A stretch of 64,000 nucleotides of DNA, taken from the IMG/VR virus record IMGVR_UViG_3300023202_000061. One strand, written 5' to 3'. Under the pieces are notes generated by a model, which saw only the letters and a list, made by a program, of their open reading frames with translations, had not been told where the DNA came from and did not search any database. Shown one piece after another: positions 5,224-64,000 of the stretch. Numbering within the stretch: the first letter of the stretch is position 1; each line of letters begins with the position of its first letter. A program made the translations under genes and the position numbers. Origin of the DNA: a virus. Taxonomy: Duplodnaviria > Heunggongvirae > Uroviricota > Caudoviricetes.

Positions 5224-5284
5224 CTAAACATATTGGAATATGCATCATGATCTTTTTACATAACCACTCGACTAAAGGGAAACT

Positions 5285-7703: not shown

Positions 7704-7704
7704 T

Positions 7705-8250: not shown

Positions 8251-8351
8251 TGTAAAAGCGGTGGAGTCATCTAACAAAGATGTTCTCAAGTATGTCTTTG
8301 AAAAGGACAATGCTGTAGCTGAGTCGGTACTTTACAAGTATCCAACCTCAT

Positions 8352-20190: not shown

Positions 20191-20262
20191 TGTAGGATAG
20201 GCAATCGGTACGCCGGCTGCTGTTAACCAGTGACGATGGGGGTTCGAGTCCCTCTCCTACAG
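20191..20262 (+). tRNA. tRNA (anticodon region GCTGTTAACCAG, probably Asn GTT)
   Basis: acceptor TGTAGGA/TCCTACA, T-arm GGGGGTTCGAGTCCCTC; anticodon stem ambiguous. Confidence 0.4.
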
Positions 20263-20354
20263 CGAGAGAAGATATTCGTAGGTTCGAATCCTACCATGGC
20301 ACGACTCGGGAGGGTACGGTCATGTGGCTGGAGGAAACAAGTACTTCTCGTTAT

Positions 20355-22584: not shown

Positions 22585-22709
22585 AGACGCGCATCGAGGA
22601 GTGTTCATCGTTATGGGTGGTGAAACTGAGCATCACGCCGGACCCTAGCGGGTCCGTAGTTCTGGGTTCGAATCCCAGCCTATAACCTACTCTTTGAGTT
22701 TTTCGTCTA
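22585..22709 (+). repeat. A/B cassette 4 (A 22585-22609, B 22691-22709) enclosing a closed tRNA-like element
   Basis: interior 22610-22687 has 8-bp acceptor GTTATGGG/CCTATAAC, two hairpins and T-arm CTGGGTTCGAATCCCAG. Confidence 0.5.
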
Positions 22710-32783: not shown

Positions 32784-32856
32784 AGACTTTGGATCATAAG
32801 TGATCCTTAGATGGGGATCACCACATGAAAGATCTCCATTCAATATTGGAGCTAAA

Positions 32857-34029
32857 ATGACACAAACACACGTAAATATCGGAACCATTGGACACGTTGA
32901 CCACGGAAAGACAACCCTTACCGCTGCGCTAACAAAGGTTCTATCGTCACTGTATGGTGGTAGCTCCATTGATTTTGATCAGATCGATAAGGCTCCTGAA
33001 GAGAAGGAGCGAGGCATTACGATCAATACATCGCATGTTGAGTACAACACTGCCAATCGGCATTATGCTCACATCGATTGTCCTGGTCATGCCGACTACG
33101 TGAAGAACATGATCACTGGAGCATCACAAATGGACGGCGCTATCCTACTAGTTGATGCTTCACAGGGAGCACAGCAGCAGACCCGTGAGCATATCCTTCT
33201 TGCTAAGCAGGTTGGAGTTGAGCAGATGGTAGTCTTCCTTAACAAGATTGATGTTTCTGATGAGGAACTCATCGAGCTTGTAGAGATGGAAGTTACTGAG
33301 ATGCTTGAGTCTCAGGGTTTTGAAGGTACACCAATGGTTAGAGGGAGTGCTCTCAAGGCACTTCAAGCTGATTCTGATGGCCCTGAGTGGCAGTGCATCA
33401 AGGATTTGGCCCAGGCTTTGGACGAACATCTCACAGAGCCTACTCGTGATTATGACTCACCATTCCTCATGCCTATTGAGGATGTTCACTCTATCCCTGG
33501 TAGAGGAACTGTTGTTACCGGACGTGTATCTCGCGGTAAGATAAAGGTAGGAGATAAGATCGAAATCATTGGTTTGAGCAAGGTTGATGACAAGCCTAGA
33601 GAGGTTGTTGTCACTGGAACTCAGGCTTTCCACAAGGACATTCCTGAAGCTGTAGCTGGTCTTAATGTTGGATTGCTCCTTCGTGGTGTAGATAAGGATG
33701 AGGTTGTCCGTGGACAAGTCATCACTGCACCAGGATCCATCAAGCCACACACCAAGGGTAAGGCTGAGATTTATGTTCTCTCTAAGGATGAGGGTGGTCG
33801 TCACACACCATTTTTCAGTGGTTACAAGCCACAGTTCTTCTTTGGTACAACATCTGTAACTGGAGAGGTTTTCCTTGATGGAGAGGGTGCAATGGTTGCT
33901 CCCGGTGGACGTTCGGAGATCAACTTTGGTCTTGATAAGCCAGTTGGTGTCGAGAACGGTATGCGTTTTGCCATTCGTGAGGGTGGTAAGACTGTTGGTG
34001 CTGGAATTGTAACTGATATCTCTGCATAA
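32857..34029 (+). CDS. tuf: translation elongation factor Tu (bacterial type, short N-terminus)
   Basis: [26 protein letters not shown]-motifs; 390 aa; GGAG RBS upstream of ATG at 32857. Confidence 0.9.
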
Positions 34030-35717: not shown

Positions 35718-36037
35718 TGGAAATCGGAGGATACGACATGGTTGTTGAGGGATCCTTTTCGGAGGATCTTCTCATCAACACCATCAAAGAATTTTGGCCC
35801 AAGGCTGTGGTTGATAATGTTCAAGATGAACTTAGCTCCCATAAACACGAAATTTTTGGATACTCTACAAATGATTCAAAGATGGTATGGGATGAGCATG
35901 GGCTAACGGATGAGTTTGCAGATGAAATGATTTACATCATACTTGAAAAAGACCACATCTGTTTAGTTGTAAATTCTCCAGAATCAAAAATAGGTAAGCA
36001 CATTGTTGCTACATTAGGTAAAGAAAATGGCAAATGA
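35714..36037 (+). CDS. hypothetical protein
   Basis: 107-aa ORF. Confidence 0.45.
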   Translation: MMEIGGYDMVVEGSFSEDLLINTIKEFWPKAVVDNVQDELSSHKHEIFGYSTNDSKMVWDEHGLTDEFADEMIYIILEKDHICLVVNSPESKIGKHIVATLGKENGK

Positions 36038-38231
36038 TTATTCAGAAATGAACACGTATCGTCATGATAACGTACACATCACAACAGGTGGAAAGGTTCC
36101 AATCAAGGAGTGGACCGTTGGTGTTGATGTAGAGGATGGTGCTCGTAAGCAGCTTGTTAACACAGCTCAGATGCCATTTATTTTCAGACACATTGCGGCC
36201 ATGCCAGACGTACATTCTGGTAAGGGCTCAACAGTTGGTTCGGTTATCCCAACACACAAGGCTATCGTGCCTGCTTGTGTAGGTGTGGATATTGGATGTG
36301 GAATGATGGCCGTGCAAACAACTATCAAGGGTTCTCAGCTACCAGACAACCTCGCAGATGTTCGTTCTGCTATTGAAGCTGCGGTTCCACATGGTCGTAC
36401 TGCTAACGGTGGTCCAAACGATAGAGGTTCTTGGTCCGATCCACCAAGCACTGTAGAAATCGCTTGGATGGGTCTTGAGCCAAAGTACAAGAAGATTGTA
36501 GAGAAGAATAAGGGTATTGAGTCCAGACATGGCCGAGTTCCTCATTCTCATCTTGGTACTCTTGGAACAGGTAACCACTTTATTGAGATGTGTATTGATG
36601 AATCTGATTCTGTTTGGATCATGCTTCACTCTGGGTCTCGTGGAGTAGGTAACCGTATTGGTTCCTTCTTCATTGATAAGGCTAAGCAAGAGATGGATCG
36701 ATGGTTCATTTCTGGACGTTTGCCAGATATCAATCTAGCATTCCTGCCAGAGGGATCTGATCTCTTCAAGGACTATGTTGAGGCGGTCGGATGGGCTCAG
36801 GACTTTGCTCGTACTAATCGTGAGCAAATGATGAATGCTGTCCTTAAGGCTCTTAAGAAGTGCAAAAAGATTCCTAAGTTTGAGACAACTGAGGTTGCTG
36901 TGAACTGCTTTCGAGGAGATACTAAGTTCATTACATCTACTGGAGTAAAGTCATTAAGTGAAGTTTCAGGATCAACTGTAAAGCTTTTAACAAGCACTGG
37001 TGAGTGGGTATCCGCCCCCATTAAGAGCTTTGGAGATCAAAGCATTGTAAAGCTAACACTAGGCCGTTATGATGTAACAAAAACAATTTATACTACTGCC
37101 GAACATAGATGGTTTGTAGATCCACTTCAAAGGAAGAGGGTTGAAAAACTAACAATGGATCTTGAGCCTGGGGATCGTCTAGCATTTCAACGTGCAAATA
37201 AATCTTTTGATGGTTTTGATCCGCTATTTGAGTATCGAGGTTTTACTTTCGGTGACGGTTCTACTTGTAGCGTAAACACATCTTTAGCTAATTTTTGTGG
37301 GCCAAAAATTCCATTGCTAGATCGATTTAAAAAACTAGGAGTTGGTAATGAGCCACGATCATATGGTGATACAATTCGTGTAACAGGCTTGAGAGGGCAC
37401 TGGAAAAAAACATTTGATGATCTATTTAATGCCTCTCCCAATAAGATTGCAGGCTGGCTAGCTGGGTATTTTGCTGCTGATGGTGATATCGATAAAACAG
37501 GCCGCCCCACTATTACTTCTGCTAGAAAAGAGCACTTAGAAGTTTATAGAGATTTGTGTTGGTTAATTGGAATAGCTACCTATCCCATCAGGGTAACATA
37601 TCGCACAGGATATGGAGAGGAAGAAACCCCTATTTACTTGATGGGTCTAAGTAGAAATGATTTACCAAATGATTTCTTTTTGCGCGAAGATCATCGTGTA
37701 CGTTTGCGAAGCGTTGATGAACGGTTAAATTGGAAAGTTTTATCAGTAGAAACAACAGATTGCATTGATGAAGTGTTCTGTGCTGAGGTTGATGGTACAC
37801 ACTCATTTGTATTGGAAGATGGAATCCTTACTTCGAACTGTCACCACAACTATGTGGAGAAGGAATTCCATTTCGGTAAGTCCGTATGGGTAACTCGTAA
37901 GGGCGCTATTCGTGCTCGCAAGGGTGACCTTGGAATTATCCCAGGATCAATGGGGGCTAAGTCTTTCATCGTTCGTGGACTTGGATGTGAGGATTCTTTC
38001 TGTTCAGCTTCTCACGGAGCAGGGCGTAAGATGAGCCGTACTGAGGCTAAGAAGAGATTTACACTCAAAGATCACCGAGAGGCAACTGAGGGTGTTGAGT
38101 GTAAGAAAGATGCTTCTGTACTCGATGAGACACCACAAGCTTATAAGGACATTGATACCGTCATGGAAGCTCAGAAGGATCTCGTTGAAGTTGTTCATAC
38201 GCTCAAGCAAGTTGTTTGTGTGAAGGGGTAA
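36027..38231 (+). CDS. rtcB: RtcB RNA 3'-phosphate/5'-OH ligase, interrupted by an intein
   Basis: RtcB conserved blocks (MPDVHSGKG, GTGNHF, CHHNY, HGAGR); 734 aa versus about 420 aa expected, excess explained by the intein. Confidence 0.85.
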   Translation: MANDYSEMNTYRHDNVHITTGGKVPIKEWTVGVDVEDGARKQLVNTAQMPFIFRHIAAMPDVHSGKGSTVGSVIPTHKAIVPACVGVDIGCGMMAVQTTIKGSQLPDNLADVRSAIEAAVPHGRTANGGPNDRGSWSDPPSTVEIAWMGLEPKYKKIVEKNKGIESRHGRVPHSHLGTLGTGNHFIEMCIDESDSVWIMLHSGSRGVGNRIGSFFIDKAKQEMDRWFISGRLPDINLAFLPEGSDLFKDYVEAVGWAQDFARTNREQMMNAVLKALKKCKKIPKFETTEVAVNCFRGDTKFITSTGVKSLSEVSGSTVKLLTSTGEWVSAPIKSFGDQSIVKLTLGRYDVTKTIYTTAEHRWFVDPLQRKRVEKLTMDLEPGDRLAFQRANKSFDGFDPLFEYRGFTFGDGSTCSVNTSLANFCGPKIPLLDRFKKLGVGNEPRSYGDTIRVTGLRGHWKKTFDDLFNASPNKIAGWLAGYFAADGDIDKTGRPTITSARKEHLEVYRDLCWLIGIATYPIRVTYRTGYGEEETPIYLMGLSRNDLPNDFFLREDHRVRLRSVDERLNWKVLSVETTDCIDEVFCAEVDGTHSFVLEDGILTSNCHHNYVEKEFHFGKSVWVTRKGAIRARKGDLGIIPGSMGAKSFIVRGLGCEDSFCSASHGAGRKMSRTEAKKRFTLKDHREATEGVECKKDASVLDETPQAYKDIDTVMEAQKDLVEVVHTLKQVVCVKG
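36906..37838 (+). mobile_element. intein (311 aa) with LAGLIDADG homing-endonuclease domain inside rtcB
   Basis: begins CFRGDTKFITSTG, contains LAGYFAADGDI, ends ...ILTSN with +1 Cys of extein motif CHHNY. Confidence 0.75.
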
Positions 38232-50604: not shown

Positions 50605-50676
50605 GGACCTATAGCTCAGTGGTAGAGCAGAGAGTTCTAAACTCTTTGGTCCAGGGTTCAATTCCCTGTGGGTCCT
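50605..50676 (+). tRNA. suppressor tRNA, anticodon CTA (reads UAG amber)
   Basis: acceptor GGACCTA/TGGGTCC, D-arm GCTCAGTGGTAGAGC, anticodon stem GAGAG/CTCTT, loop TTCTAAA (U33, C34 U35 A36, A37), T-arm CAGGGTTCAATTCCCTG. Confidence 0.65.
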
Positions 50677-50759
50677 CAAATACAATGACCAACATCAAGA
50701 TTCACACCGAAAAGATTAAGGTTTTTATTTCCAAAATCATTTCGGTTTGATATACCTTT

Positions 50760-50897: not shown

Positions 50898-52391
50898 ATG
50901 AATAAAAAAGAACGTCAGGAATATGAAGAGAAGATTCTCAAAGATCTTTCAGTGGAGCGTCAGGGAAAGAAGCTCATCGTACCAGAGGGTGTTGAGCTAA
51001 GCATTGCAGTCAAAGCTTTGCAGCTCAAACAAGAAGAAGAGGAAGAATTCAACGCTGTTTCCTGGGACTTTGAATATGGAGTTGCAGAAGGTATGGTGGC
51101 ATTCCTTCGTACTCTTGAGAAGCAGTTCGGTTTCGTATCTGCTCGCCCCACGCCTACCTTCTTTGGTAATCGCCCTCCTCAGTTCCTTGGAATTGAGACT
51201 GCACCAGGTCATCAAGAGTCTGTTCCTTTCGGACGACTCAATGTTCCTGGTATTAATGGATGGCTGGAACCCACTTACAACATCAAGAAGGGCAAAGTTG
51301 TCTTTAAGATTCATGGTGAGATCAAAGGCAAACACCGTGTAAAGGCAGATGTCATCATTGAGGCTGTGAGAAGGGAGTGCAAAGATAACTCCATCTATAA
51401 AGGTCAGGCAATTGAGACTTCATTCCCCGAGATTGAAGATCTCAACTCTTTGGGAGATACTTTCCCCACCTTTGCTAAGCTCAACAAGATTGATTTGGAT
51501 GACATCATTTTCAGCAAGGTTGTTTCTGACAAGATTATGGTTTCTCTGTTCATGCCTATCATGCACAGTGAACGTTGTCGCAAGCATGAAGTTCCGCTCA
51601 AGCGCGGCATTCTTCTTGAAGGCCCTTACGGTGTTGGTAAGACCCTCACCGCAGCTGCTACGGCAGCCCTTTGTAAGGAAAACAACTGGACTTTCATCTA
51701 TCTAAAGGATGTGACTAAGCTTGCACAGGCGTACTCTTTCGCTGAACAGTATCAGCCTGCCGTCATCTTTGCAGAGGACATCGATCAGATTGTCAAAAAC
51801 AAAGATCCTGAACATCGAGATGATGAAATCAACAACGTGCTCAACGCACTTGATGGAATTGACTCTAAGGGCATTGAGGTTATCACTGTTCTGACCACGA
51901 ACAATGTTCAGAACCTCACCAAGGCAATGCTTCGTCCCGGTCGTTTGGATACCGTTGTTTCGGTTCGTCCCCCAGATGCAGACGCAGCTCAACAATTGGT
52001 TCGTCTATTCGGTGGCGATCTTATTGCAGCGGACGAAGATCTCTCATCTGTTGGAGATATTCTTAAGGGAGAGATTCCCGCTCTCATCAGAGAGGTTGTG
52101 GAGCGCTCCAAGCTTGCAGCAATGCGTCGTGAGCAGGAAGATGAAAACCTCAGAATTGTCGCTGAGGACATCAAGGTTACGGCAGAGGGTATGAAGGATC
52201 ACATGAATCTTCTCAAGAAGAAGGATCCGGATAACCGCTCCGAGCGCGAGAAGGCTGCTGGCGTCATTGCTTCGGCAACAGTTGCTGCTGAGCAGATCAA
52301 GCAAGGCAAGGACATCAAGGAAGTTCTTGAGGATCTTCCCGATCTCAAGAGAGCAACTCAGAAGCCAGACGAGCTGCCTTTCGCTAACTAA
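50898..52391 (+). CDS. AAA+ ATPase (classic AAA family)
   Basis: Walker A GPYGVGKT, Walker B IFAEDID, second region of homology TTNNVQNLTKAMLRPGRLD. Confidence 0.75.
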   Translation: MNKKERQEYEEKILKDLSVERQGKKLIVPEGVELSIAVKALQLKQEEEEEFNAVSWDFEYGVAEGMVAFLRTLEKQFGFVSARPTPTFFGNRPPQFLGIETAPGHQESVPFGRLNVPGINGWLEPTYNIKKGKVVFKIHGEIKGKHRVKADVIIEAVRRECKDNSIYKGQAIETSFPEIEDLNSLGDTFPTFAKLNKIDLDDIIFSKVVSDKIMVSLFMPIMHSERCRKHEVPLKRGILLEGPYGVGKTLTAAATAALCKENNWTFIYLKDVTKLAQAYSFAEQYQPAVIFAEDIDQIVKNKDPEHRDDEINNVLNALDGIDSKGIEVITVLTTNNVQNLTKAMLRPGRLDTVVSVRPPDADAAQQLVRLFGGDLIAADEDLSSVGDILKGEIPALIREVVERSKLAAMRREQEDENLRIVAEDIKVTAEGMKDHMNLLKKKDPDNRSEREKAAGVIASATVAAEQIKQGKDIKEVLEDLPDLKRATQKPDELPFAN

Positions 52392-52525: not shown

Positions 52526-53872
52526 ATGGCTAAAAAATACAGGATTCAATCATCAACCCCTTGGGGAACGAACCCCAATGAAGAAGAGGGCAATGTGGGG
52601 TTCAACCCCAAAAAGATAACTGATAATAAATCTATCTTTTACTCTATAGCCTCAATTGGTTCTATCTCTAGATATGTCGGCATGATTGGAGATCGTCTTC
52701 ACATGTTACCAAAACCAGGAGAGAAGGACTTTCTGAAGAAGTTGAAACTATTTACATTCTTCTGGCAAATATTTCAAAATGCAATCATCTCTTCTCCAAA
52801 GCTATTTGAAAGAAGAGGGATCAGGAAAATAACATTTGGAGCTTCCGACAGTATCATCTACGATCTTATGAGTGAGATTCTAGAACCTGATGAAGTATAC
52901 AGACCAAAGGGAGCTAACTATCCAGGCTCAGCACTTGCCAACCTTTACCGATTTGATCTTGGTGAAGAAAAATATGTTTATTGGTCAATCTATACTCATG
53001 ACCAAAACATCAAATCTGTTCATGTCACATCTGGCGTAAACAAGGATATTATCATTTCATTTTTATGGAAAAGGCTTGGAAAGGTTATTCAGCTTGATAC
53101 ATCAAATGATGATATTGGATATGTTAGAACTGAGCTGCACCAGAAAAAGATATATGGCTCATCCACTGAGATGATTTCTAAGCTCAAGAAGGATTACGAT
53201 CATTTCTATGATAATAAAATGTCTAGAGGGTATCTTCTAATTGGAAAGCCTGGTACTGGTAAAACTGGTATTGTCAATGCTATTGTATCTGAGGCAAAGG
53301 GAAGAGTGTTTGTCATATCTGGTCTTGGCTCTGTGAGTATGATCGAATCTATTGAAAGTCTTTCCACACACATGGAGCCAGACTTCATCATCTTTGATGA
53401 CTGTGATCGTTCTGCCAGCACCTCTCCATATGTTCGTGCGATTCTTAAGCTAATTGAGTCTGTAAAGGAAAAGAACCCTCATACTATGTTCTTGTTTACA
53501 GCCAATACATTCGATGGAATCTTAAGTGATGATGCTGTTACCAGGAAGGGGAGGATTGACCAGATTTATGAAATTCCTGAGCCCGGTCTAGAAGACCGCA
53601 AAGAAATCATTACCAGATATGCCGAGGAGTTTGGTGTTAAACTTTCAGATGAGGATCTGGATAAATGCATTCAAGAGTCTGATGGAATGACCGGCGCAGA
53701 CTTGAAAGAGCTTTGCATCCAGCTACAACGCGCAAGCATTGATGAGTGTTTTGAACAGAATCAGCTAATCGAGACGCTGAAAGAAAAGTACAAACCAGAT
53801 TTGTTTGGTAAGCTCAATGCTTACAACGATGATGATATCATGGATATCGGAACTACAAGAAGGAGAATGTAG
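52526..53872 (+). CDS. AAA+ ATPase (classic AAA family), second paralog
   Basis: Walker A GKPGTGKT, Walker B IIFDDCD, second region of homology with RKGRID. Confidence 0.7.
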   Translation: MAKKYRIQSSTPWGTNPNEEEGNVGFNPKKITDNKSIFYSIASIGSISRYVGMIGDRLHMLPKPGEKDFLKKLKLFTFFWQIFQNAIISSPKLFERRGIRKITFGASDSIIYDLMSEILEPDEVYRPKGANYPGSALANLYRFDLGEEKYVYWSIYTHDQNIKSVHVTSGVNKDIIISFLWKRLGKVIQLDTSNDDIGYVRTELHQKKIYGSSTEMISKLKKDYDHFYDNKMSRGYLLIGKPGTGKTGIVNAIVSEAKGRVFVISGLGSVSMIESIESLSTHMEPDFIIFDDCDRSASTSPYVRAILKLIESVKEKNPHTMFLFTANTFDGILSDDAVTRKGRIDQIYEIPEPGLEDRKEIITRYAEEFGVKLSDEDLDKCIQESDGMTGADLKELCIQLQRASIDECFEQNQLIETLKEKYKPDLFGKLNAYNDDDIMDIGTTRRRM

Positions 53873-55083: not shown

Positions 55084-55574
55084 TTCTTGGCATTACTGGT
55101 CATCGCCCTAGCTCACCATCAATGGGTGGTTACACCATTCCTAATCCGACATATGAAAAAGTCTACGCAGCTCTTAAAGAGAAGTTTGAGCTGTTAAAGC
55201 CTAACAAAATCATTTCTGGTATGGCCCTTGGCACAGACCAGTGGGCCGTTTCAGTTGCACTAGAACTGGAAATTCCATTTGTGGCTGCCGTGCCTTGTGA
55301 TGGACAAGACAGGATGTGGCCAGATGATTCTAAAGCCAAATACAAGGAGTATCTTGACTTGGCAGAAGAGGTTGTGATAGTGTCGCCCGGACCATACGCG
55401 CCTGAAAAAATGCATTTCAGGGACAAATGGATAGTGGATAATTCAGACTGCCTTCTTGGTGTCTGGAGTGGAATTCGCAAGGGAGGAACCTTTGCAACAA
55501 TACGATATGCAGAGAAGTCCATCAACAGAGGGAGGGATTATGACATCTATTTGATCAATCCAGATCTGTTGTAG
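55080..55574 (+). CDS. SLOG-superfamily YpsA-like (DUF1273-like) protein
   Basis: N-terminal ILGITGHRP motif. Confidence 0.45.
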   Translation: MILGITGHRPSSPSMGGYTIPNPTYEKVYAALKEKFELLKPNKIISGMALGTDQWAVSVALELEIPFVAAVPCDGQDRMWPDDSKAKYKEYLDLAEEVVIVSPGPYAPEKMHFRDKWIVDNSDCLLGVWSGIRKGGTFATIRYAEKSINRGRDYDIYLINPDLL

Positions 55575-55581
55575 AGGTCAT

Positions 55582-55767
55582 ATGAACAATGGTGGTGGTG
55601 CTCATTTTGAGCCAAAAATGAAAGAGCTAAGACTTTGTTCACGAGAAAGTCTGTTGCGTCTAGCAAAATATTTGCATCTAAGAAGAGGTTTGGATCAGAT
55701 GTCAAATGAACAGCTGGCCAAGCTCATCAAATGGAGAACATCTAGACATAGGAGAGAACGTGGCTAA
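55582..55767 (+). CDS. hypothetical small protein
   Basis: 61-aa ORF. Confidence 0.3.
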   Translation: MNNGGGAHFEPKMKELRLCSRESLLRLAKYLHLRRGLDQMSNEQLAKLIKWRTSRHRRERG

Positions 55768-55790
55768 CAAAAAGAAAAAGGGTAACAAGA

Positions 55791-56138
55791 ATGTTATCCT
55801 GGCGATTGTGCAGAAAGAAGATCCGCACAGATATAGAGACAGAGTGGTCAGGCCCGAGAAGGGCATGGGTAGAAAAGACAGACCACGCAACAAGGACTAT
55901 TCTGACTTTTTTGATTGTGCTGCCTAAGAAGTTAGACATCAGAATCAAGGAAGTCATGATAGTAACAAGAGCGACAAGACCTGTAGAACTATGTTCACAA
56001 TGTCTTGGTGTTGGAAGGGTTCCGTGCTGGCACTTTTGTAACCCATCAGAAAAGACATGTGATAACTGTAAAGGTTCTGGATATGTTTCTGAACTCTCTG
56101 CTCAAGAGAGATTATGCTCCCGTAGCTCAGCTGGATAG
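55791..56138 (+). CDS. hypothetical Cys-rich protein (3' end overlaps tRNA-Arg)
   Basis: 115-aa ORF; CSQC...CNPSEKTCDNCKGSG. Confidence 0.35.
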   Translation: MLSWRLCRKKIRTDIETEWSGPRRAWVEKTDHATRTILTFLIVLPKKLDIRIKEVMIVTRATRPVELCSQCLGVGRVPCWHFCNPSEKTCDNCKGSGYVSELSAQERLCSRSSAG

Positions 56139-56189
56139 AGCAGCGCTTTCCTAAAGCGAAGATCATAGGTTCGAATCCTATCGGGAGTG
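56116..56189 (+). tRNA. tRNA-Arg(CCT)
   Basis: acceptor GCTCCCG/CGGGAGT, D-arm GCTCAGCTGGATAGAGC, loop TTCCTAA, T-arm ATAGGTTCGAATCCTAT. Confidence 0.65.
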
Positions 56190-57182
56190 CAAGGCAGTAT
56201 AGTGGTAAAGAAACGTTCAAAGCGTTATAACTTCATTGATGAGTTTGACTTTCATGATGGTTATAATTTGTTAGATCATAATCTCCTTGAGTCTTTCAGT
56301 CATGATATGGAAAGATTTAATCGTGATATGGCAGATTATAGTCGAAAAGTTGTGTTCGGTCCCATTCCTAATCTACCTCCTATACCACCAAAACCTCCTG
56401 TCCCTCATTTTTCTCCAGCAAATCCAAATGCTAAAATTGTAAAGAAAGAAGAAAGAATGTCCCATAACCTTTGGATCTGTACTCCGAAAGATACAGAGAT
56501 CATTGATCATATCTGTGCAAAAATCGTTGGAATGGGAGTGAAGATCTCGGCCCTGGCACAAAACGGAAACATATACCAGGATAAGCAAAGCTCTCCGACA
56601 ACCATAATTGCTATTAAAATTCATAACTTCAATAGCAAGCTCGGCATTGGTGATGTTCTTTCAAGGATCAAAAACAAGATCAAAGACCATCCATACTATG
56701 GAATCGTCTTAGTAAATACCAGAACCAACAAATGTATCTGGGGAGCTGGTAATGTTGAAGACTGGGATATGCACGCCCCTGATGACAGATGGGAAGTCGG
56801 ATTGGATATTCCTCCTGCAAAGGCTGAGGTGGAGAAATCTGAGCCCGAGCCACAAAAAAATGAACCAAAGAAAGATCCGGTAGGAGACATTGACATGTCC
56901 CTTCTTTTGCGCGTGCTCAAAGCAAGCACCGCCATCTCAGATGTATTTTTTGATAATGTATCTCAGAATGAACGAAGAAAGCTTTACGAAAAAGTCGAGA
57001 CTCTCGCTACTGGGCCGAACCATTCTCTAGGAAATATTGTCCCAAAAGTACAAACGCCTGAATCAGGCGCTGCCGTGAAAAACAAGTACAAGGTACTTGA
57101 AGAGGAAAAGAAAAAGGTGATTGAAGTGCCTTTACAAACTCCTCATACATCGATGTTCGGGACTTTTAGACGAACAGAATGA
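56187..57182 (+). CDS. hypothetical Pro-rich protein (start uncertain, GTG overlaps the tRNA)
   Basis: 331-aa ORF. Confidence 0.45.
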   Translation: MQGSIVVKKRSKRYNFIDEFDFHDGYNLLDHNLLESFSHDMERFNRDMADYSRKVVFGPIPNLPPIPPKPPVPHFSPANPNAKIVKKEERMSHNLWICTPKDTEIIDHICAKIVGMGVKISALAQNGNIYQDKQSSPTTIIAIKIHNFNSKLGIGDVLSRIKNKIKDHPYYGIVLVNTRTNKCIWGAGNVEDWDMHAPDDRWEVGLDIPPAKAEVEKSEPEPQKNEPKKDPVGDIDMSLLLRVLKASTAISDVFFDNVSQNERRKLYEKVETLATGPNHSLGNIVPKVQTPESGAAVKNKYKVLEEEKKKVIEVPLQTPHTSMFGTFRRTE

Positions 57183-57676
57183 AAAAGCTAGATAGAAACC
57201 TTGTTGACGCATTAGCAAAGGCAAGGTTTCATTCCAAGAGATCAGCAGGAATATCAGATACAAGATATGACGGATCTAAATGTTCCGTTGATAATGATTT
57301 GAATGCAACTGGTGCCGAATATTTTGCGGCCCAGGAGTACGGACAACCTTTCAATGCAACTATTGGAAAGAGAGGTGATGGAGGTGCAGATTTCCATTTA
57401 CCTTTGTCGGTAGAGGTGGTATGGTTGGGCGTTCAAAAAGACGGGAAACCGAGGGATACAGGACACCTAATAGTTAATCCTGATGAGCCACAAAGATGGG
57501 CTGACATATACATTGTAATCAAAGGCTCTGTAGACGAAGGCTTCGAAGAGGTCGGATGGGTGTCTCATAAGATGCTCACATCATTGCCGAAGAAAGACTT
57601 TGGTTATGGAAAGAAGTTTGCCTGTCATATTTCTGATTTGAAAAAACCACATCTGTTGAAGAACTTGATGAAATGA
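57179..57676 (+). CDS. hypothetical protein
   Basis: 165-aa ORF. Confidence 0.5.
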   Translation: MKKLDRNLVDALAKARFHSKRSAGISDTRYDGSKCSVDNDLNATGAEYFAAQEYGQPFNATIGKRGDGGADFHLPLSVEVVWLGVQKDGKPRDTGHLIVNPDEPQRWADIYIVIKGSVDEGFEEVGWVSHKMLTSLPKKDFGYGKKFACHISDLKKPHLLKNLMK

Positions 57677-58275
57677 ATGAATTTTTCGCCTGGCACAATT
57701 TGATTTTCTATATCTCATTGTTAATCGGCATCTTGCTGATCTTTGTATCAACAATGGGTGTTGGTGATGCTGACGCAGATGTCGATCATGACATAGGTGT
57801 TAATACTGATACGGATTTGTTCATCAGAGTTCTCTCTGTTCTTGGTGTTGGTAAGTGCCCTCTTAGTATCATCATGTTCTCGTTTTTTCTCATCTTTGGA
57901 GGTGCTGGGATCATGTTGAACGTGATCATTCCTCCTGCTATTGCTCTGGTGTCTGTTGCTGGAGCTGGATTTGCAGCACTTACTCTTATCAAAATCGTTG
58001 CCACTACGGTAGCTAAACTGATGCCCAATACAGAATCTTACAATGTCGATAAAGAAAGTTTGAAAGGTTCTTATGCAGAGGTTACCATGAAGGTAAGTTC
58101 TGACTTTGGTATCTGCCATGTCAAAGATAAGTATGGCAGCTTACACAAGATCAACGCCCGTTCTTATCAGAAGGATGGCGAAGAAGAAAAGACATTCCCC
58201 GTTGGAATGGAAGTTCTCATCATTGACCGCAAAGATGACGTATACTACGTCGAAGACCCACAGGAGATGAAGTAA
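57673..58275 (+). CDS. NfeD-like membrane protein (partner of SPFH proteins)
   Basis: N-terminal TM helices plus C-terminal beta-rich soluble domain, immediately upstream of the flotillin-like gene. Confidence 0.55.
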   Translation: MNEFFAWHNLIFYISLLIGILLIFVSTMGVGDADADVDHDIGVNTDTDLFIRVLSVLGVGKCPLSIIMFSFFLIFGGAGIMLNVIIPPAIALVSVAGAGFAALTLIKIVATTVAKLMPNTESYNVDKESLKGSYAEVTMKVSSDFGICHVKDKYGSLHKINARSYQKDGEEEKTFPVGMEVLIIDRKDDVYYVEDPQEMK

Positions 58276-60063
58276 ATGGTAGTGTTATTGTTTCTGGCTG
58301 CAATCGTGTTGATTGGAGCCCCTATCGCAATGAACGCGATTGGTATGGAGATCTCTTCGGTCTCTCAGATCCTCATGACTGGTGCGGGAATTTTCCTGCT
58401 ATTGGTTGGCTCAATCATTGTTGTTGTTACGAAACTCTATCAGCGTGCCCGTGCTAACGAAGCTTTCGTTCGTACCGGTATGGGTGGTGTGCGTATCATC
58501 CGTGATGGCGGTGCTCTGGTTATTCCAGTCATCCATGAGTTTCTCAAGATTTCTCTTCAAACATTGAAGCTTGAGGTTGTTCGTGAGCATTCTGAAGCTC
58601 TCATTACACAAGATAATCTTCGTGCAGATATCGGAGCTGAATTCTTCGTTCGTGTTGAGCCTAATGATGAATCAATTCTTCAGGCAGCACGATCTCTTGG
58701 TGACAAGATGATGGATGTTGTTCAGGTTCGAACAGCAGTTGAAGACAAGCTCATCTCAGCACTTCGTGCAGTTGCAGCTACAAAGACTCTGACTCAGCTT
58801 CACACTGATCGTGAAGGGTTTGTGGAAGAAGTTACCAAAGCTGTAAACAACGATCTCAAAGAGAATGGTCTTACTCTTGAATCTGTTACGATTTCAAAGC
58901 TTGACCAGACAAGTGTTTCATCCTTGAAGGATGACAACGTCTTCGACGCTCAGGGTAAGCGAACCATCGCAGAAATCACTCAGAAGAATATGACTGAGAC
59001 GAACCGCCTTCAGCGTGCTGGTGAGCAAGCTCGTAAGGAGCAAGATGTTGAAACTGAAAAGGCTGTTCTTACTCTTGATCAAGAGAAAAAGAATGCCGAA
59101 GCACGCCAGCGAGCGGAGATTGCTAAGGTAGAGGCTGAGCAGCAGAGAGAGGCTACTGAGAAGTCCATCGAGGCACAGAAGGCAATCGAACTTGCAGAGG
59201 TTGAGAAACAACAGCGAGTTGCAGTTGCTGGCATCGAAAAGGATAAGGCAGCAAACATTGCTAACGAAGCTAAGCTTACAGCAATTGCTCTTGCATCTTC
59301 CGAGAAGGCAACTCAAGAAGCTGAGCTTGCTAAGGCTCAGGCGATGCGAGAGTCTGAGATGCAGAAGATCAAGACTGTCGAGATCGAAGCTGCAGCAAAT
59401 CGTGATAAGGCTAAGTCTGTGATTGAAGCTCAGGCACAGGCAGAGCAAAACTATGTTGTTGCTCAGCGCCAGGCTGACGCTCAGGCTTATCAGGTACAAA
59501 AGGATGCTGAGGCTCGTAAGGCAGCAGCTGATGCAGATGCAGAGGCAACAACCAAGAAAGCAGCTGCAGAAGCTTCTGCTCTCAAGGCTAGGGCAGATGG
59601 CGATCAGGCGGTCCAAATGGTTCCTGTTCAGGTTGAACGTGAACGAGTCAAGATTGACCAAGATCGCATTGAGCATGTTGTGAAGCCTGAACTTGAGGCT
59701 CGTGAGAAGTCAGGTAAGGTTGCTCAGGATTTCGAAATTGCGAAGCTCAAAGTTGAGGCCGAGATGCAGGTCCAAATCGAAACTGCCCGAGCAATGGCAT
59801 CTATTGGTTCCAAGGTTCAGATGAACCTCTATGGTACTCCCGAAAATGCTGCAGATATGCTCAATGGCATTGTGAAGGGTCAGAACTGGGCAGAGTCTAT
59901 CAATGCCTTCAAGAACACTATTGATCCTTCTATCATTGAAGCTGCTAGAGATGCGGCTGAAGGAGCCGCATCAATGTTGGGAGGGTCACCTCGCAAGATT
60001 GATGACGAAGGCTCTGAGAGGCCCTCAGAGGGCTCTGACAAGAAGAGTGAAGATAAGAAGTAA
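58276..60063 (+). CDS. SPFH/Band-7 flotillin-like protein (YqiK/FloA-like)
   Basis: N-terminal TM, SPFH core (ANEAFVRTGMGG...), very long EA-rich coiled coil, acidic tail. Confidence 0.7.
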   Translation: MVVLLFLAAIVLIGAPIAMNAIGMEISSVSQILMTGAGIFLLLVGSIIVVVTKLYQRARANEAFVRTGMGGVRIIRDGGALVIPVIHEFLKISLQTLKLEVVREHSEALITQDNLRADIGAEFFVRVEPNDESILQAARSLGDKMMDVVQVRTAVEDKLISALRAVAATKTLTQLHTDREGFVEEVTKAVNNDLKENGLTLESVTISKLDQTSVSSLKDDNVFDAQGKRTIAEITQKNMTETNRLQRAGEQARKEQDVETEKAVLTLDQEKKNAEARQRAEIAKVEAEQQREATEKSIEAQKAIELAEVEKQQRVAVAGIEKDKAANIANEAKLTAIALASSEKATQEAELAKAQAMRESEMQKIKTVEIEAAANRDKAKSVIEAQAQAEQNYVVAQRQADAQAYQVQKDAEARKAAADADAEATTKKAAAEASALKARADGDQAVQMVPVQVERERVKIDQDRIEHVVKPELEAREKSGKVAQDFEIAKLKVEAEMQVQIETARAMASIGSKVQMNLYGTPENAADMLNGIVKGQNWAESINAFKNTIDPSIIEAARDAAEGAASMLGGSPRKIDDEGSERPSEGSDKKSEDKK

Positions 60064-60085
60064 TTATTGTTGAACTTGTAGAGTG

Positions 60086-60118
60086 AAAGCCCAGTCTTCG
60101 GACTGGGCTTTCTTTTTA
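60086..60118 (+). terminator. rho-independent terminator AAAGCCCAGTC-TTCG-GACTGGGCTTT then CTTTTT
   Basis: 11-bp stem plus T-run directly after the flotillin gene. Confidence 0.65.
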
Positions 60119-60139
60119 CGCATACTGCAATATCATGAC

Positions 60140-60406
60140 ATGAAAGGTAAGATTGATTTTATTGTGTGTGAAAAGGACGGAGCCTGGTACACAGAATCCA
60201 TCCAAATTCCTCCAGAAATAGCTACCCAACCAGACCAAGTTCTGGTAGATTGGGCGAAGCGCGAACGGTTCAATGATGAGCCGGATATAGTATTCATTGG
60301 CGTGTATTGGAGAGATCAAGTTCTAGATGAACTAGGTCTCACCACAGAGGCAGCTGTCGCGGCTGCGTACTCCAAGATCAATAAGGTAGCCAATGCGGGA
60401 AATTGA
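60140..60406 (+). CDS. hypothetical protein (ATG at 60140, downstream of terminator)
   Basis: the track ORF 60083.. begins inside the terminator hairpin. Confidence 0.4.
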   Translation: MKGKIDFIVCEKDGAWYTESIQIPPEIATQPDQVLVDWAKRERFNDEPDIVFIGVYWRDQVLDELGLTTEAAVAAAYSKINKVANAGN

Positions 60407-60680
60407 TACTGAATTTGAACTCTTCAAGTCTTTGGTAACAGGTTTGGATAGATCTTTGTTTCCAACAAAGATCAAGAATGAAGCCTCAGATGTTGAGGTC
60501 GCAGACAAGTTGTTGAACAATCCGGATATCGGAAAGTTCTTGACAGCAGAGTTTGTTGATGCAATGAAAGAAAAGCTAAATAGAAAAGCTCAAGGCCTCA
60601 TAAAACAGGCAGAGATTGAAAGTCAAGGACTCAACAAGTTCGCAACAGCAGAGTTCGAACCTGAAGAAGAAAACTCTTGA
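60393..60680 (+). CDS. hypothetical acidic protein
   Basis: 95-aa ORF. Confidence 0.45.
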   Translation: MREIDTEFELFKSLVTGLDRSLFPTKIKNEASDVEVADKLLNNPDIGKFLTAEFVDAMKEKLNRKAQGLIKQAEIESQGLNKFATAEFEPEEENS

Positions 60681-60716
60681 CTTCAAGTACAGGTCTGATA
60701 CAAGTCATGGTCGATT

Positions 60717-60789
60717 GCCGCTTTAGCTCAATTGGTAGAGCACCGGTTTTGTAAACCGAAGGTTGTGGGTTCAAGTCCCTCATGCGGCT
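60717..60789 (+). tRNA. tRNA-Thr(TGT), second copy
   Basis: acceptor GCCGCTT/ATGCGGC (one mismatch), D-arm GCTCAATTGGTAGAGC, loop TTTGTAA. Confidence 0.6.
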
Positions 60790-60877
60790 CCCTTTCCACT
60801 GTGAAAGGTGGTGGAGGGCAAAGGTGAAAAGCCTAGCCCCTAGTAGTTCCAAGTCTGCTCTATCAAAACTTGGATAC

Positions 60878-61255
60878 GGGGATGAAATGGATTCGACATG
60901 GAGAAAGAAACAAACTTGATCATGTAGGCAGAGTTAGAGCTGGCTTAATCAATTCTAGCAACGTTAATTGCAAACGATAACGCATTCGCTCCTGCCGCTC
61001 TCGCAGCGTAAGGCGCTGTCTCTTGAAGAGGGTGTTTGAGTATTCAAGAGGCATTAACCACACAAACTGGACTACTGGACTTCGGTCACAGATCGCCTCG
61101 AAAAGGTAGTTGAGATAATTAGAGGGTGACATTCCAAGAATAGATTGGATGACGGTTACCAAAGGTAACAACCTGCTGGTAGGTATCCAGATAAACATGT
61201 GAGCGAGAGTTTGATAGACATCTTCGTGGACCCGGCTTCGATGCCGGCATCTCCA
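60878..61255 (+). ncRNA. ssrA: tmRNA (ssrA), tag peptide ANDNAFAPAALAA
   Basis: 5' GGGGATGAAATGGATTCGACATGG matches the tmRNA consensus GGGGNUGAUUCUGGAUUCGAC; internal GCAAACGATAACGCATTCGCTCCTGCCGCTCTCGCAGCGTAA; 3' T-arm CCGGCTTCGATGCCGG and acceptor CATCTCC-A pairing with the 5' GGGGATG. Confidence 0.75.
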
Positions 61256-61293
61256 CAAAAACTCTCAACATCTCCATACCTGTTGATATATCA

Positions 61294-61899
61294 GTGGGTA
61301 TGGTTATGTTGAGATGTACTAATTGCGCCTCCCCTTTTGAAAAGAACAACTCAGAATATAAAAGGCAAATTAAGAAAGGTAGAGAAAACTTTTTCTGTTC
61401 AAGATCGTGTTCTATGAAGTTCACAAATACACGAAGAGAAAAAGAAGCAATTCTAAATGGTAAAGACCCATACGAACAGGCTAAAAAAAATATTGTTGAT
61501 TGGATGGGTAACAAAAAAGGACAACGAAAGAAAGACTCCTTAACACCGTTTAGATGGTTTGTACTCAGAGCAAAATTCAGAAGTAAACAATGCAAGAGAA
61601 AAAATTGTGGTGTAACTCCTGAGTTTTTGAAGCAATTATTTGATAGTCAAAATGGTATTTGCCCAATTACGGGATGGAATCTTGTATTACCAGATAGTAC
61701 TAGTAAGGGTTGGTCAAATGGACCCTCTCCACAAAACGCGAGTCTTGACAGGATTGATCCATCTATGGGATACATAGAAACTAACGTTAGATTTGTAAGC
61801 CTGATGGCCAATCATGCTAGAAATTCATTTGATGACAATACACTAATTGATTTTTGTGAATCAGTTGTGAAAAACAAGAAAGAAAGACATACAATATGA
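61294..61899 (+). CDS. HNH homing endonuclease (HNH_3-type)
   Basis: C-terminal SLDRIDPSMGYIETNVRFV...N..K; directly downstream of ssrA. Confidence 0.7.
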   Translation: MGMVMLRCTNCASPFEKNNSEYKRQIKKGRENFFCSRSCSMKFTNTRREKEAILNGKDPYEQAKKNIVDWMGNKKGQRKKDSLTPFRWFVLRAKFRSKQCKRKNCGVTPEFLKQLFDSQNGICPITGWNLVLPDSTSKGWSNGPSPQNASLDRIDPSMGYIETNVRFVSLMANHARNSFDDNTLIDFCESVVKNKKERHTI

Positions 61900-63557
61900 A
61901 TTGGGGATTTGCTAAGCCAGCAACTAAACCAGAACCTACATCAAGAAATGAGAGCGATGGAACTCTCATTGATATGCTCAAGAGTGCTCGCGGCAGAATC
62001 GCAGAGCTTGAAGGGTTCTTCACGAAGATGGAGAACTCATCCCTCTCTATCCATGGATATGTTATCAAAGTTGATGGAGACAAGGTTCTTGTTGGATCCT
62101 CTCAAGGTGTCTTTGAGGGTGTAAGAAACCCAATGGCAAAGGACAAGAAAGAGCTGAACTTAGAGTTGGGTCAAGCTGTCCGAGCCAATCGTGAAAATGG
62201 AATTGTCATCTCAAACTCTTTAGAGATTGATGCTGGTAAGGTTTACATTGTCCAATCATGTGACATGGAACAAGGATGGGTTGAGATTGATGCTGAGGGA
62301 TCTCCTCATCGCCTCAGTACATGCAGCCTTGAAAAGGTTGAAGATGGAGACAGGATTCTTGTTGATCCATCTCTCACCATTGCTCTGAGGAACTACGGCA
62401 AAGACCGTAAGCGCTTTGCATTCAAAGGTGAGACCGGTGTTTCCTGGGATGACATTGGTGGTCTTCATATTGCAAAGGAAGCTCTTCGTGAAGCAATTGA
62501 GCTTCCCGCAAAGCACGCTCAGATCTTCAAAGCATATGGGAAGAAGATCTCTAAAGGTGTTATGATGTATGGTCCCACTGGTTGTGGTAAGACCATGCTT
62601 GCAAAAGCAGCTGCAACTTCATTGGCTGACACTTTCGGTGCAGAAGCCAAAGAGACAGGGTTCATCTACGTCAAGGGACCAGAGCTTCTTGACAAATGGG
62701 TGGGCAACACCGAGGCAATGATTCGTGGTCTGTTCGCACAGGCACGAGATCACCACAAGAAGAATGGATACCCAGCTATCCTTTTCATTGATGAGGCTGA
62801 TGCTCTTCTTGGTAAGAGAGGTGGCGCAAAGGGTGAGCGTGCGACCTCTCTATCAAGCACCATTGTGCCTCAATTCCTGAGTGAAATGGATGGCCTTGAA
62901 GAGTCCGGTGCGTTTGTTCTTCTTGCAACGAATCGCCCTGACATCTTGGATCCTGCGGTGGTTCGTGATGGGCGTATTGATCGTAAGGTTCATGTAACAC
63001 GTCCTGATCAATCATCTGTCCGAGACATCCTCAAGATCAATCTCAAGAACAAGCCAATCTGTGGTGAGCTTGATCAATTGGTAGAGTATGCTGCCTCTGA
63101 GATTTGTAGCACTGAGCATAAGCTGTATGATGTCCAGTACACAAAGAGTGGTAAGACAGAAGTTGCTGAGATGTTCTACCGAGACTTGGTCAATGGTGCT
63201 ATGATTGCCGGTATTATTGAGCAGGCAACTGGTGAGGCAATGAATCGAGACATTGCAAGTGGTAATCCCCATCCAACTGGCATCAAAGAAGAAGACCTTC
63301 GTGAAGCTATCATGAAGTCACTTCGTGAGAACTCAGATACCAACCATGATATTGCTTTGGAAGAGTTTGAGATCTCTATTGATGGTAAGATCAAGGGTAT
63401 TAGGAAAGCTACCGAAGATGTAAAGGAAGCAGTTCCAGATCTTCCTCCCAAAATCGAAACACAACAGAAGACATCAGATATTAAGGAGATACAGGATGAG
63501 CAATTGGTGGGGGCTTCTCAAGAAGCCGCAGAAGCAGTCCAAGCCTGGGGTGGTTGA
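61896..63557 (+). CDS. AAA+ ATPase (classic AAA, CDC48/proteasomal-ATPase-like), third paralog
   Basis: Walker A GPTGCGKT, Walker B ILFIDEAD, second region of homology ATNRPDILDPAVVRDGRIDRK. Confidence 0.75.
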   Translation: MNWGFAKPATKPEPTSRNESDGTLIDMLKSARGRIAELEGFFTKMENSSLSIHGYVIKVDGDKVLVGSSQGVFEGVRNPMAKDKKELNLELGQAVRANRENGIVISNSLEIDAGKVYIVQSCDMEQGWVEIDAEGSPHRLSTCSLEKVEDGDRILVDPSLTIALRNYGKDRKRFAFKGETGVSWDDIGGLHIAKEALREAIELPAKHAQIFKAYGKKISKGVMMYGPTGCGKTMLAKAAATSLADTFGAEAKETGFIYVKGPELLDKWVGNTEAMIRGLFAQARDHHKKNGYPAILFIDEADALLGKRGGAKGERATSLSSTIVPQFLSEMDGLEESGAFVLLATNRPDILDPAVVRDGRIDRKVHVTRPDQSSVRDILKINLKNKPICGELDQLVEYAASEICSTEHKLYDVQYTKSGKTEVAEMFYRDLVNGAMIAGIIEQATGEAMNRDIASGNPHPTGIKEEDLREAIMKSLRENSDTNHDIALEEFEISIDGKIKGIRKATEDVKEAVPDLPPKIETQQKTSDIKEIQDEQLVGASQEAAEAVQAWGG

Positions 63558-63762
63558 TGGAAAAGTTAAACTTCCAAAACTTGCCGGAACAGGTGACATT
63601 GACAGTGTCATTGATGAACATGAAGCTGCTGCAGCTGCGGCAGAAGCAGAGGCAGAAGCAGAACGACAAGCCTATCGAGAGGCTATGGAAGACGAACGGG
63701 CAGCAGAGCGAGCCCAACGTCATGAAGAAGAGCGGTACATCGGTGACTACTGTGGTTGTTAA
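63496..63762 (+). CDS. hypothetical EA-rich small protein
   Basis: 88-aa ORF overlapping the 3' end of the upstream gene. Confidence 0.35.
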   Translation: MSNWWGLLKKPQKQSKPGVVDGKVKLPKLAGTGDIDSVIDEHEAAAAAAEAEAEAERQAYREAMEDERAAERAQRHEEERYIGDYCGC

Positions 63763-64000
63763 TGCTTGAAGCTATCATCGCATTTGTGTTTCTTGGTCTT
63801 GCCAATGGCATGATCTCATTCACAATATCCAAGGGAATTATCTTCCGAAGCTTTCGTGACTTTTTCTTCTTCAGATCGCAGAAGAGCAAGTTCATGGGCT
63901 GGATGTATGACTTAGTGACATGTCCTTATTGTACATCTCACTGGGTCGCGTTTGCGATGATCGGCATCTGGCAACCAACATTCACAAATTGTGGTGTGAA
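63762..64000 (+). CDS. hypothetical membrane protein (3' truncated by window end)
   Basis: ATG at 63762, open to the end of the window, hydrophobic. Confidence 0.35.
   Translation, partial: MLEAIIAFVFLGLANGMISFTISKGIIFRSFRDFFFFRSQKSKFMGWMYDLVTCPYCTSHWVAFAMIGIWQPTFTNCGV

Follow-up and report, generated by a model that had tools for sequence, protein, structure and literature searches.

Genes for SPFH2 proteins, a class of the SPFH superfamily (stomatin, prohibitin and flotillin, with HflK/C), and for NfeD2 proteins co-evolve and are transferred together (PMC2636767, Hinderhofer 2009). SPFH proteins act in membrane fluidity and in the recruitment of PspA (PMC8581546, PMC9239133), and the solved structures of flotillin, HflK/C, QmcA-YbbJ, prohibitin, stomatin and erlin show ring- or dome-shaped cages (PMC11260169, PMC13000311, PMC12478178). 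In phages, the function of SPFH proteins has repeatedly been called unknown (PMC7760394, PMC13239085, PMC13384950). Here we describe a gene pair of this kind in a 64,000-nucleotide stretch of viral DNA (Caudoviricetes; IMG/VR record IMGVR_UViG_3300023202_000061), the whole of which is hereafter called the window. The pair consists of a yqiJ-like gene of the NfeD2 class (57673-58275, + strand, 200 aa) followed by a yqiK-like gene (58276-60063, + strand, 595 aa), identified by the open reading frame (ORF) call, the Band_7 domain and similarity to YqiK as a prokaryotic flotillin of the SPFH2 class. Both ORFs were called at exactly the coordinates given in a preliminary description of this DNA. 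We consider it highly probable that the pair is a functional, horizontally acquired operon of the yqiJ-yqiK type, encoding an NfeD2 protein and an SPFH2 flotillin in an accessory region of a huge phage. The likeness to bacterial yqiJ-yqiK operons, already pointed out in that description, is supported by hidden Markov models (HMMs), by comparison with Escherichia coli YqiJ and YqiK, by the predicted folds and by gene order.

The SPFH/Band-7 core proposed for the 595-aa protein was recovered by the Band_7 profile (PF01145; 67.1 bits against a cutoff of 23.6) over residues 58-236 (58447-58983, + strand), and the AlphaFold2 (AF2) model shows the corresponding alpha/beta core with a predicted local distance difference test score (pLDDT) of 80-92. 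The motif quoted for this core, IVVVTKLYQRARANEAFVRTGMGG, is present at residues 47-70 and falls in the most conserved part of the family. E. coli YqiK aligns to the protein with 37% identity over 443 aa (E 4e-70), and chance similarity is excluded because the homology E-values reach this level. By sequence, the closest solved structure is flotillin-1 in the PDB (E 6.6e-6). Foldseek returned 62 PDB matches at E<=1e-3, all of them SPFH proteins or vault, the best being the human flotillin cage entries 9bq2_B (flotillin complex, E 1.2e-10) and 9l3g_A; after flotillin, the next structural relatives are prohibitin, stomatin, erlin, HflK/C and QmcA-YbbJ. As the NCBIfam FloT equivalog model (NF058507) scored 44.9 bits against a cutoff of 700, the protein is a relative of FloT and not an equivalog. 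In the PHROGs scan it gave a weak match to phrog_200, "lipoprotein" (E 3.8e-5), and the YqiJ-like protein gave none.

The remaining parts of the flotillin-like protein differ somewhat from what had been proposed. An N-terminal transmembrane (TM) anchor is present, but it comprises two hydrophobic helices (residues 2-21 and 28-58) instead of one, with hydropathy placing the hydrophobic segments at residues 1-27 and 26-58. The long coiled-coil-type region is borne out by composition and by the AF2 model: it spans residues 222-510 (58939-59805, + strand), is modelled as two helices (residues 222-358 and 370-510), and between residues 251 and 500 consists of Ala, Glu, Lys, Gln and Arg to 56-72%, with almost no Pro or Gly. 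The acidic tail, on the other hand, did not hold, as the C-terminal end is of mixed charge and at most weakly acidic, with residues 564-595 disordered and a net charge of -1 for the final 30 aa and of -3 for the final 45. The Pfam Flot domain (PF15975) had no match at E<=1 in the window protein or in four of its relatives (L005, L011, L013 and L015), while it scored 139.8 bits in E. coli YqiK and 77.6 bits in the flotillin of the Sinorhizobium jumbo phage Phosso. The alignment of the family profile with YqiK ends at about residue 440 of the window protein, and the C-terminal ~155 aa, which are not of the Flot type, are conserved among the window protein and its phage and Myxococcota relatives. 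This C-terminus is thus a subfamily trait held in common with bacteria, and not a phage invention.

Regarding the smaller protein, the proposed NfeD-like identity stands in its YqiJ form, as judged from the YqiJ_N profile, the similarity to E. coli YqiJ and the fold, but not in its classic form, since the NfeD HMM PF01957 had no match at E<=0.1. YqiJ_N (PF21001) scored 24.2 bits, just over its cutoff of 23, and YqiJ_OB (PF07290) scored 14.7 bits, under its cutoff of 25.4. E. coli YqiJ is 28% identical over nearly the full length (E 5e-12), with an hhalign probability of 98%. The AF2 model (mean pLDDT 72.5) places TM helices at residues ~7-27, 64-85 and 88-116, in agreement with hydropathy, followed by a C-terminal five-strand beta domain at residues 134-194 (58072-58254, + strand) with the oligonucleotide/oligosaccharide-binding (OB) fold of solved NfeD domains. 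On these grounds the protein can be assigned to the short NfeD type, the YqiJ/YuaF ("NfeD2") class of Hinderhofer et al. (PMC2636767). A long NfeD of the NfeD1b kind, fused to a ClpP-type protease, was considered and rejected, as the protein has just 200 aa and no protease-family match. The loop after the first TM helix, GDADADVDHDIGVNTDTD (residues 33-50; 57769-57822, + strand), is rich in Asp, with D34, D36, D38 and D48 as invariant alignment columns. An alternating Asp/His run in this loop (DxDxDxD or HxDxH) was observed family-wide, in the window and in 94 related loci, with a median of 10 Asp or His among 20 residues against a background median of 4; in one locus (L002) the loop is His-rich and coincides with an assembly gap. 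The loop may possibly be a cation-binding element.

The two genes lie closer than the 1-nt gap reported earlier: the TAA stop codon of the yqiJ-like gene (58273-58275) directly abuts the ATG of the flotillin-like gene at 58276, leaving 0 nt between them. A GGAG ribosome-binding site for the second gene can be read directly within the end of the first (58263-58266, + strand), 9 nt 5' of the ATG, and the arrangement is consistent with translational coupling, given that the stop codon abuts the start codon and the GGAG lies within the preceding gene. Upstream, the start of the yqiJ-like gene overlaps the stop codon of a 165-aa ORF (57179-57676, + strand) in the sequence ATGA. Downstream, the strong terminator that had been proposed is indeed found at 60085-60112, with a 12-bp stem holding 7 G-C pairs and a UUCG loop, then TTTTT. 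It begins 22 nt past the flotillin stop codon and, with its T-run (60085-60117, + strand), is the top-ranked terminator-like site in 55500-61500. The pair is therewith predicted to close a co-directional transcription unit and to be transcribed together with phage genes that lie upstream.

To see the pair in a wider setting, 95 loci with relatives of the larger protein were gathered, the sources being genomes of bacteria, metagenomes, IMG/VR and phages in GenBank. In 94 of these, the ORF directly upstream of the flotillin gene is YqiJ-like and on the same strand; in the sole exception the sequence ends 50 bp before the flotillin gene. Because of this near-constant association, we regard the two genes as one module. 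The same four-gene order as in the window was also present in an independent short-read assembly (Logan, L103), which indicates that the gene arrangement is no assembly artefact. In one locus (L010, 9107-9982 and 13067-14119) the yqiJ-like and flotillin genes are separated by an inserted radical-SAM gene, and a TnpB/Cas12f-like ORF lies 1.3 kb downstream.

That the window is an accessory region of a huge uncultured phage is well supported, although not proven from the window alone. Its genes include those for nicotinamide phosphoribosyltransferase (NAMPT), a fusion of nicotinamide mononucleotide adenylyltransferase (NMNAT) with NUDIX, PhoH, an intein-bearing RtcB, an EF-Tu homologue, three AAA ATPases and several HNH endonucleases, and many of its dense, small, co-directional ORFs match PHROG families only, or nothing. 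Synteny extends to the 208-kb IMG/VR viral contig IMGVR_UViG_3300009095_001812 (L011/L099) and to others, of 134 kb and 453.6 kb, the shared order of genes being AAA, SLOG, 331-aa ORF, 165-aa ORF, YqiJ-like, flotillin and two small ORFs. A near-identity DNA search of positions 56000-64000 against 50,697 GenBank phage records gave no match, nor did tblastn of the YqiJ-like protein and of the 165-aa protein against GenBank phages; with these searches empty, the phage has no cultured relative in GenBank. One could argue that the pair is not a phage feature at all but comes from a bacterium, by way of a host fragment, a chimeric assembly or mis-binning of the contig, or that it is a passenger in decay, since no capsid, terminase or other structural gene was found among the ~40 ORFs scanned in the 64-kb window, the scan of IMG/VR did not recover the source contig, and the nearest named homologues are bacterial. 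We regard this as extremely unlikely: the gene order recurs in the independent assembly and in at least six related phage-like contigs, the 208-kb contig among them; the GC content fits the phage and not Polyangia; the ORFs are intact and conserved, as detailed below; and the surroundings are dense, small, co-directional ORFs without family, HNH endonucleases and 45 transfer RNA (tRNA) genes.

We then turned to the origin of the pair, using neighbour-joining trees bootstrapped with 200 replicates. The 21 closest flotillin proteins (54-100% identity) form one clade, and all six of the clade contexts examined are phage-like, with the partner gene upstream in each. This window clade was recovered in 194/200 replicates, as sister to operons of Polyangia/Myxococcota. 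A basal member of the phage clade (L009) carries a bL12 homologue (5081-5446) together with PP2C phosphatase and protein kinase-like genes. Besides the window clade, at least three other viral lineages have the pair: a second group (L012-14), supported in 200/200 replicates, also when joined with two Polyangiales-labelled contigs; a 424-kb IMG/VR contig (L015), which branches elsewhere; and Phosso, which falls outside the whole Myxococcota-plus-phage group (200/200). Monophyly of all viral copies was found in 0/200 replicates, and because the viral copies branch separately, we conclude that there were at least four entries into large phage genomes, or exchange among them. The viral loci from IMG/VR were recovered only by alignment of the clade; a scan of IMG/VR with the single protein gave no match.

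At 46%, the GC content of the pair is near the 43% of the window and differs widely from the values in the Polyangia loci, 61-67%; the transfer is therefore old. A host call from the closest bacterial homologues (Polyangia) was also considered and was set aside as unreliable, given the fully ameliorated GC content and the old transfer. All phage copies of both genes are intact. The ratio of nonsynonymous to synonymous substitution rates (dN/dS) was obtained from the closest phage pair only, dS being saturated for most others, and is approximate, with dS near saturation even there: ~0.07 for the flotillin and ~0.17 for its partner. Intact copies and these low ratios together indicate that the genes are functional and under purifying selection in phages. 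As regards the labels of individual contigs, among loci L037, L041, L042, L044 and L048-L050 two Polyangiales-binned contigs group with IMG/VR viral flotillins (200/200), and several flotillin pairs of 43-47% identity occur in metagenome-assembled genomes labelled Uhrbacteria or Magasanikbacteria. Some contigs with these three labels may be mis-binned phage contigs.

The 165-aa ORF upstream of the pair is 70-80% identical in relatives (70-75% in L004, L010 and L011), with a dN/dS of ~0.11. It has 71 homologue clusters, all of unannotated metagenome proteins, on contigs of up to 446 kb, and it had no Pfam, PHROG or GenBank-phage match. It was considered as a third component of the module and rejected, since it is more widespread than the pair and occurs without it (L101 and L102), but it is a useful marker of this uncultured huge-phage group. 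Through it, sister phages were found, and a check on related phages, suggested earlier, thereby gave a divided outcome: the pair is present in the window clade and missing from the sisters L101 and L102. At the equivalent locus, another sister phage (L100, 3209-8214) has a gene for a protein of 782 aa that ends in a Band_7 domain (99 bits) and one for a PspA/IM30-like protein, with genes for an OmpA-domain substrate-binding protein and an ABC transporter after them. A 221-aa protein of this phage was considered as a divergent NfeD partner and rejected, with an hhalign probability of 0.06%.

The pair lies in an accessory region that varies, is present in some sister phages and absent from others, and was acquired repeatedly by different large phages, patterns that are typical of conflict genes. 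It could accordingly be thought to guard the infected cell against membrane-depolarising abortive infection (Abi) effectors, or to keep superinfecting phages out through a change in the membrane where their DNA enters. Still, neither protein matches any of 5027 PADLOC defence models (E<=0.1), no known defence or anti-defence system with an SPFH2/NfeD2 pair was found in the literature searched, and the bacterial homologues stand in an ordinary chromosomal context beside a sigma-54 activator and not in defence islands, so that a role in conflict is in our opinion improbable.

Based on our and others' results, the following mode of action can be proposed for the operon. By way of a hydrophobic hairpin at its N-terminus, the 595-aa protein would enter the inner membrane of the host, with the SPFH domain lying on the cytoplasmic leaflet, and its helical region of ~290 residues would drive assembly of a large ring- or dome-shaped homo-oligomer around a patch of membrane, as in the solved cages. 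The three TM helices of the 200-aa partner would hold that protein within this patch, and its OB-fold domain would dock on the cage. A different place of action is suggested by other large phages, as SPFH-domain proteins were found by mass spectrometry in virion preparations of Eneladusvirus jumbo phages (PMC7760394), and the authors of the GIB1 phage study speculate on a role in adsorption or entry (PMC13239085). The window protein might thus be virion-associated or a DNA-injection protein, as in RaK2-like jumbo phages. We find this very unlikely, because the Eneladusvirus proteins belong to other, shorter subfamilies without a tblastn match to the window protein, which moreover retains the full bacterial inner-membrane architecture and an obligate membrane partner, in a locus situated among metabolic and translation-related accessory genes and not among structural ones.

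A cage of this kind could also regulate an AAA+ protease or unfoldase in the style of HflK/C-FtsH, corralling host FtsH or a phage AAA machine and thereby controlling the degradation of phage or host membrane proteins. SPFH cages enclosing FtsH have been solved, and 7wi3, 9cz2 and 7vhq are among the Foldseek matches. Furthermore, directly 3' of the flotillin gene in an 85-kb IMG/VR contig (L013, 12049-13977) lies a gene for a soluble protein combining an N-terminal P-loop (GLTGSGKT) with an FtsH-type Peptidase_M41 domain, its HEAGH motif intact, and a classic-clade AAA ATPase (Mpa/ARC-like) is encoded 1.8 kb downstream of the pair in the window, next to a transfer-messenger RNA (tmRNA), and less than 1.5 kb downstream in L002 and L003. 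The linkage is, however, inconsistent, as L004, L008, L009, L010 and L011 have no AAA or protease gene adjoining the pair. The L013 protease and the window AAA protein are not mutually homologous and neither has TM segments, and with three AAA genes in the window a chance adjacency is plausible. HflK/C is, in addition, a periplasm-facing heteropair, whereas the window locus combines just one SPFH gene with that of an NfeD protein; an HflK/C-FtsH-type set of paired SPFH paralogues with a membrane FtsH was not found, the neighbouring AAA proteins having neither TM segments nor HExxH. We therefore hold regulation of a protease to be unlikely.

In respect of purpose, the NfeD2-SPFH2 operon may serve to maintain an intact, fluid and organised host membrane while a very large phage goes through its long infection cycle, a proposal that we make tentatively and rate at somewhat less than an even chance. 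With a copy of its own, the phage would provide an envelope-stress function whose induction is normally left to the host. In Bacillus subtilis, floA and floT belong to the sigma-W regulon and are induced by membrane stress, including phage infection (PMC8581546, PMC9239133). The theme of membrane stress rests on this regulon together with the XpaC-like and TelA genes of Phosso and the SPFH and PspA/IM30-like genes of the sister phage L100. A bolder version, to which we give little credence, is that several lineages of very large phages independently captured the module to build a membrane compartment of their own in the infected cell. The cage would then sequester or organise particular membrane proteins (host FtsH, tmRNA-linked phage AAA unfoldases or proteases, holins, or the targets of Abi toxins) and control membrane integrity and the timing of lysis, with the Asp/His-rich loop as a cation sensor gating assembly.

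Several points weigh against this account. The AF2 monomer model of the 595-aa protein (pLDDT 73, predicted TM-score 0.38) is uninformative on the oligomer state, and with its non-Flot C-terminal ~155 aa the closure of a cage may differ from that in flotillin or YqiK. The pair is dispensable for this phage group, given the sisters without it, and the PspA/IM30-like protein of L100 scores 27.1 bits, below the Pfam cutoff of 33.9. The lack of structural genes in the window, noted above, belongs here as well. Moreover, loss of yqiK in E. coli gives no clear phenotype under the standard stresses (PMC2636767), and even in bacteria the function is poorly defined. The membrane-maintenance purpose proposed for the phage derives from genomic context and bacterial physiology. 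Taken as a whole, with operon identity, cage mechanism and membrane-maintenance purpose combined, the explanation that we consider best has about an even chance of being right.

SPFH-fold proteins are not new to viruses. Among the 50,697 GenBank phage records only seven match the flotillin, several of them as short unverified fragments. FloT-like genes in a crAss-like phage and in two other deposited phage records encode proteins 24-26% identical to the window protein. In the crAss-like gut phage csAssE-Sib (L096, OR575929; 3399-5626), the flotillin is of the FloT type, with Band_7 and Flot domains, and is preceded by a 164-aa "transmembrane protein" in the position of an NfeD partner, for which no Pfam match was obtained. 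In BFVD, 26 virus-encoded SPFH-fold matches were found at E<=1e-3, their sources being giant viruses of eukaryotes and several phages. In Phosso (L001, PV764938), a four-gene cluster resembling envelope-stress genes (5290-9470) holds a YqiJ-like gene annotated as hypothetical, an SPFH/Flot gene, an XpaC-like gene (PF10112) and TelA (PF05816, 312 bits).

As SPFH scaffold genes were already annotated in other large viruses, the find is moderately surprising and overturns no current view. In the literature searched, no paper was found on a phage flotillin-NfeD pair, on its conservation in a huge-phage clade or on its repeated acquisition. What is added here is a complete flotillin-NfeD operon kept under purifying selection in a huge-phage clade, on contigs of up to 453 kb. 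Its repeated capture, sometimes beside TelA, XpaC or PspA-like genes, suggests that large phages target membrane homeostasis time and again. With just two proteins and no host regulation, the pair is moreover a compact system in which the assembly and action of SPFH-NfeD cages can be studied, and, with the function of bacterial flotillins and their NfeD partners poorly defined, it gives a testable handle on what such pairs do.

Further features of the window were recorded beside the pair. Positions 60878-61258, 0.8 kb 3' of the flotillin gene, hold a full-length tmRNA with the tag peptide ANDNAFAPAALAA (Rfam RF00023, 95.6 bits), followed by an HNH endonuclease gene and by the AAA ATPase gene mentioned above (61896-63557). 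The latter encodes a soluble 553-aa protein with no TM segment and no HExxH motif, which matches the Mpa/ARC model TIGR03689, built for an actinobacterial proteasome ATPase, over the full length with 286.8 bits (cutoff 504.75), is 54% identical to the product of the gene at the same relative position in L002 and L003, and has relatives in Brevundimonas phages annotated as "proteasome-associated ATPase". The other two AAA genes of the window are at 50898-52391 and 52526-53872. The 45 tRNA genes are spread over 19418-60791. One of them, at 50605-50677, is of the suppressor type and has the anticodon CUA (Rfam tRNA, 69.5 bits), and two further calls are unusual in that their anticodons have four bases (20191-20263 and 22611-22687); these may reflect stop-codon reassignment or frameshift suppression in the phage. 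In addition, the window carries a NAD salvage pair, formed by the NMNAT-NUDIX fusion (6558-7703) and the nicotinamide phosphoribosyltransferase (8745-10187), a PIN-PhoH protein (14379-15683), a complete EF-Tu homologue (GTP_EFTU with domains 2 and 3; 32800-34029), and an RtcB RNA ligase gene (36027-38231) split by an intein with a LAGLIDADG endonuclease domain.

Among other viruses with SPFH genes, Phosso (gp491-492) has the same YqiJ-like and flotillin-like pair, which is only 34% and 28% identical to that of the window and carries a Flot domain. RaK2-like jumbo phages, Rhizobium phage Pasto, Streptomyces phage StarPlatinum and giant eukaryotic viruses also encode SPFH-fold proteins, but most annotated viral members are short, of the stomatin or HflK type, with 12-19% identity and no reported NfeD partner. 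SPFH cages in general (flotillin 9bq2/9l3g, HflK/C-FtsH 7wi3, prohibitin, stomatin, erlin and QmcA-YbbJ) share with the window protein the SPFH fold and the build of an SPFH domain with a long helix. They are only 15-24% identical to it and belong to other subfamilies, some of them differing in topology (HflK/C is periplasmic) and stoichiometry. The cage that we propose for the phage protein is borrowed from these homologue structures (PMC12478178, PMC11260169), the phage protein itself being known here from its sequence and a monomer model. E. coli QmcA-YbbJ (SPFH1-NfeD1; PDB 8z5g), which according to the title of its PDB entry and to citing papers is the only solved SPFH-NfeD complex, represents another subfamily. 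Among bacterial pairs, B. subtilis yuaF-floT (yuaG) encodes a FloT-type flotillin with the Flot domain that the window protein lacks, and the latter's equivalog score of 44.9 is far below the cutoff of 700.

E. coli yqiJ-yqiK (NfeD2a-SPFH2a, PMC2636767) has the same gene order and orientation as the window pair. YqiK resembles the window flotillin in its TM anchor, SPFH domain and long EA-rich helices, the two being alignable to residue ~440, and YqiJ resembles the window partner in its three TM helices and OB fold. The E. coli protein, however, has a Flot domain where the window protein has a different conserved C-terminal stretch of ~155 aa, and one hydrophobic helix fewer at the N-terminus; the genes are 26 nt apart in E. 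coli, whereas those of the phage-carried pair have 0 nt between them. The closest cellular relatives are the operons of Polyangia/Myxococcota (e.g., Polyangiaceae JAWKRG010000003, L005), whose flotillins are 49-53% identical over the full length and whose partner proteins are 36-38% identical. These operons share with the window pair the gene order, the C-terminal region and the absence of a Flot domain, but they are chromosomal, stand beside a divergent sigma-54 activator and have an 88-nt intergenic gap, whereas the window genes abut.

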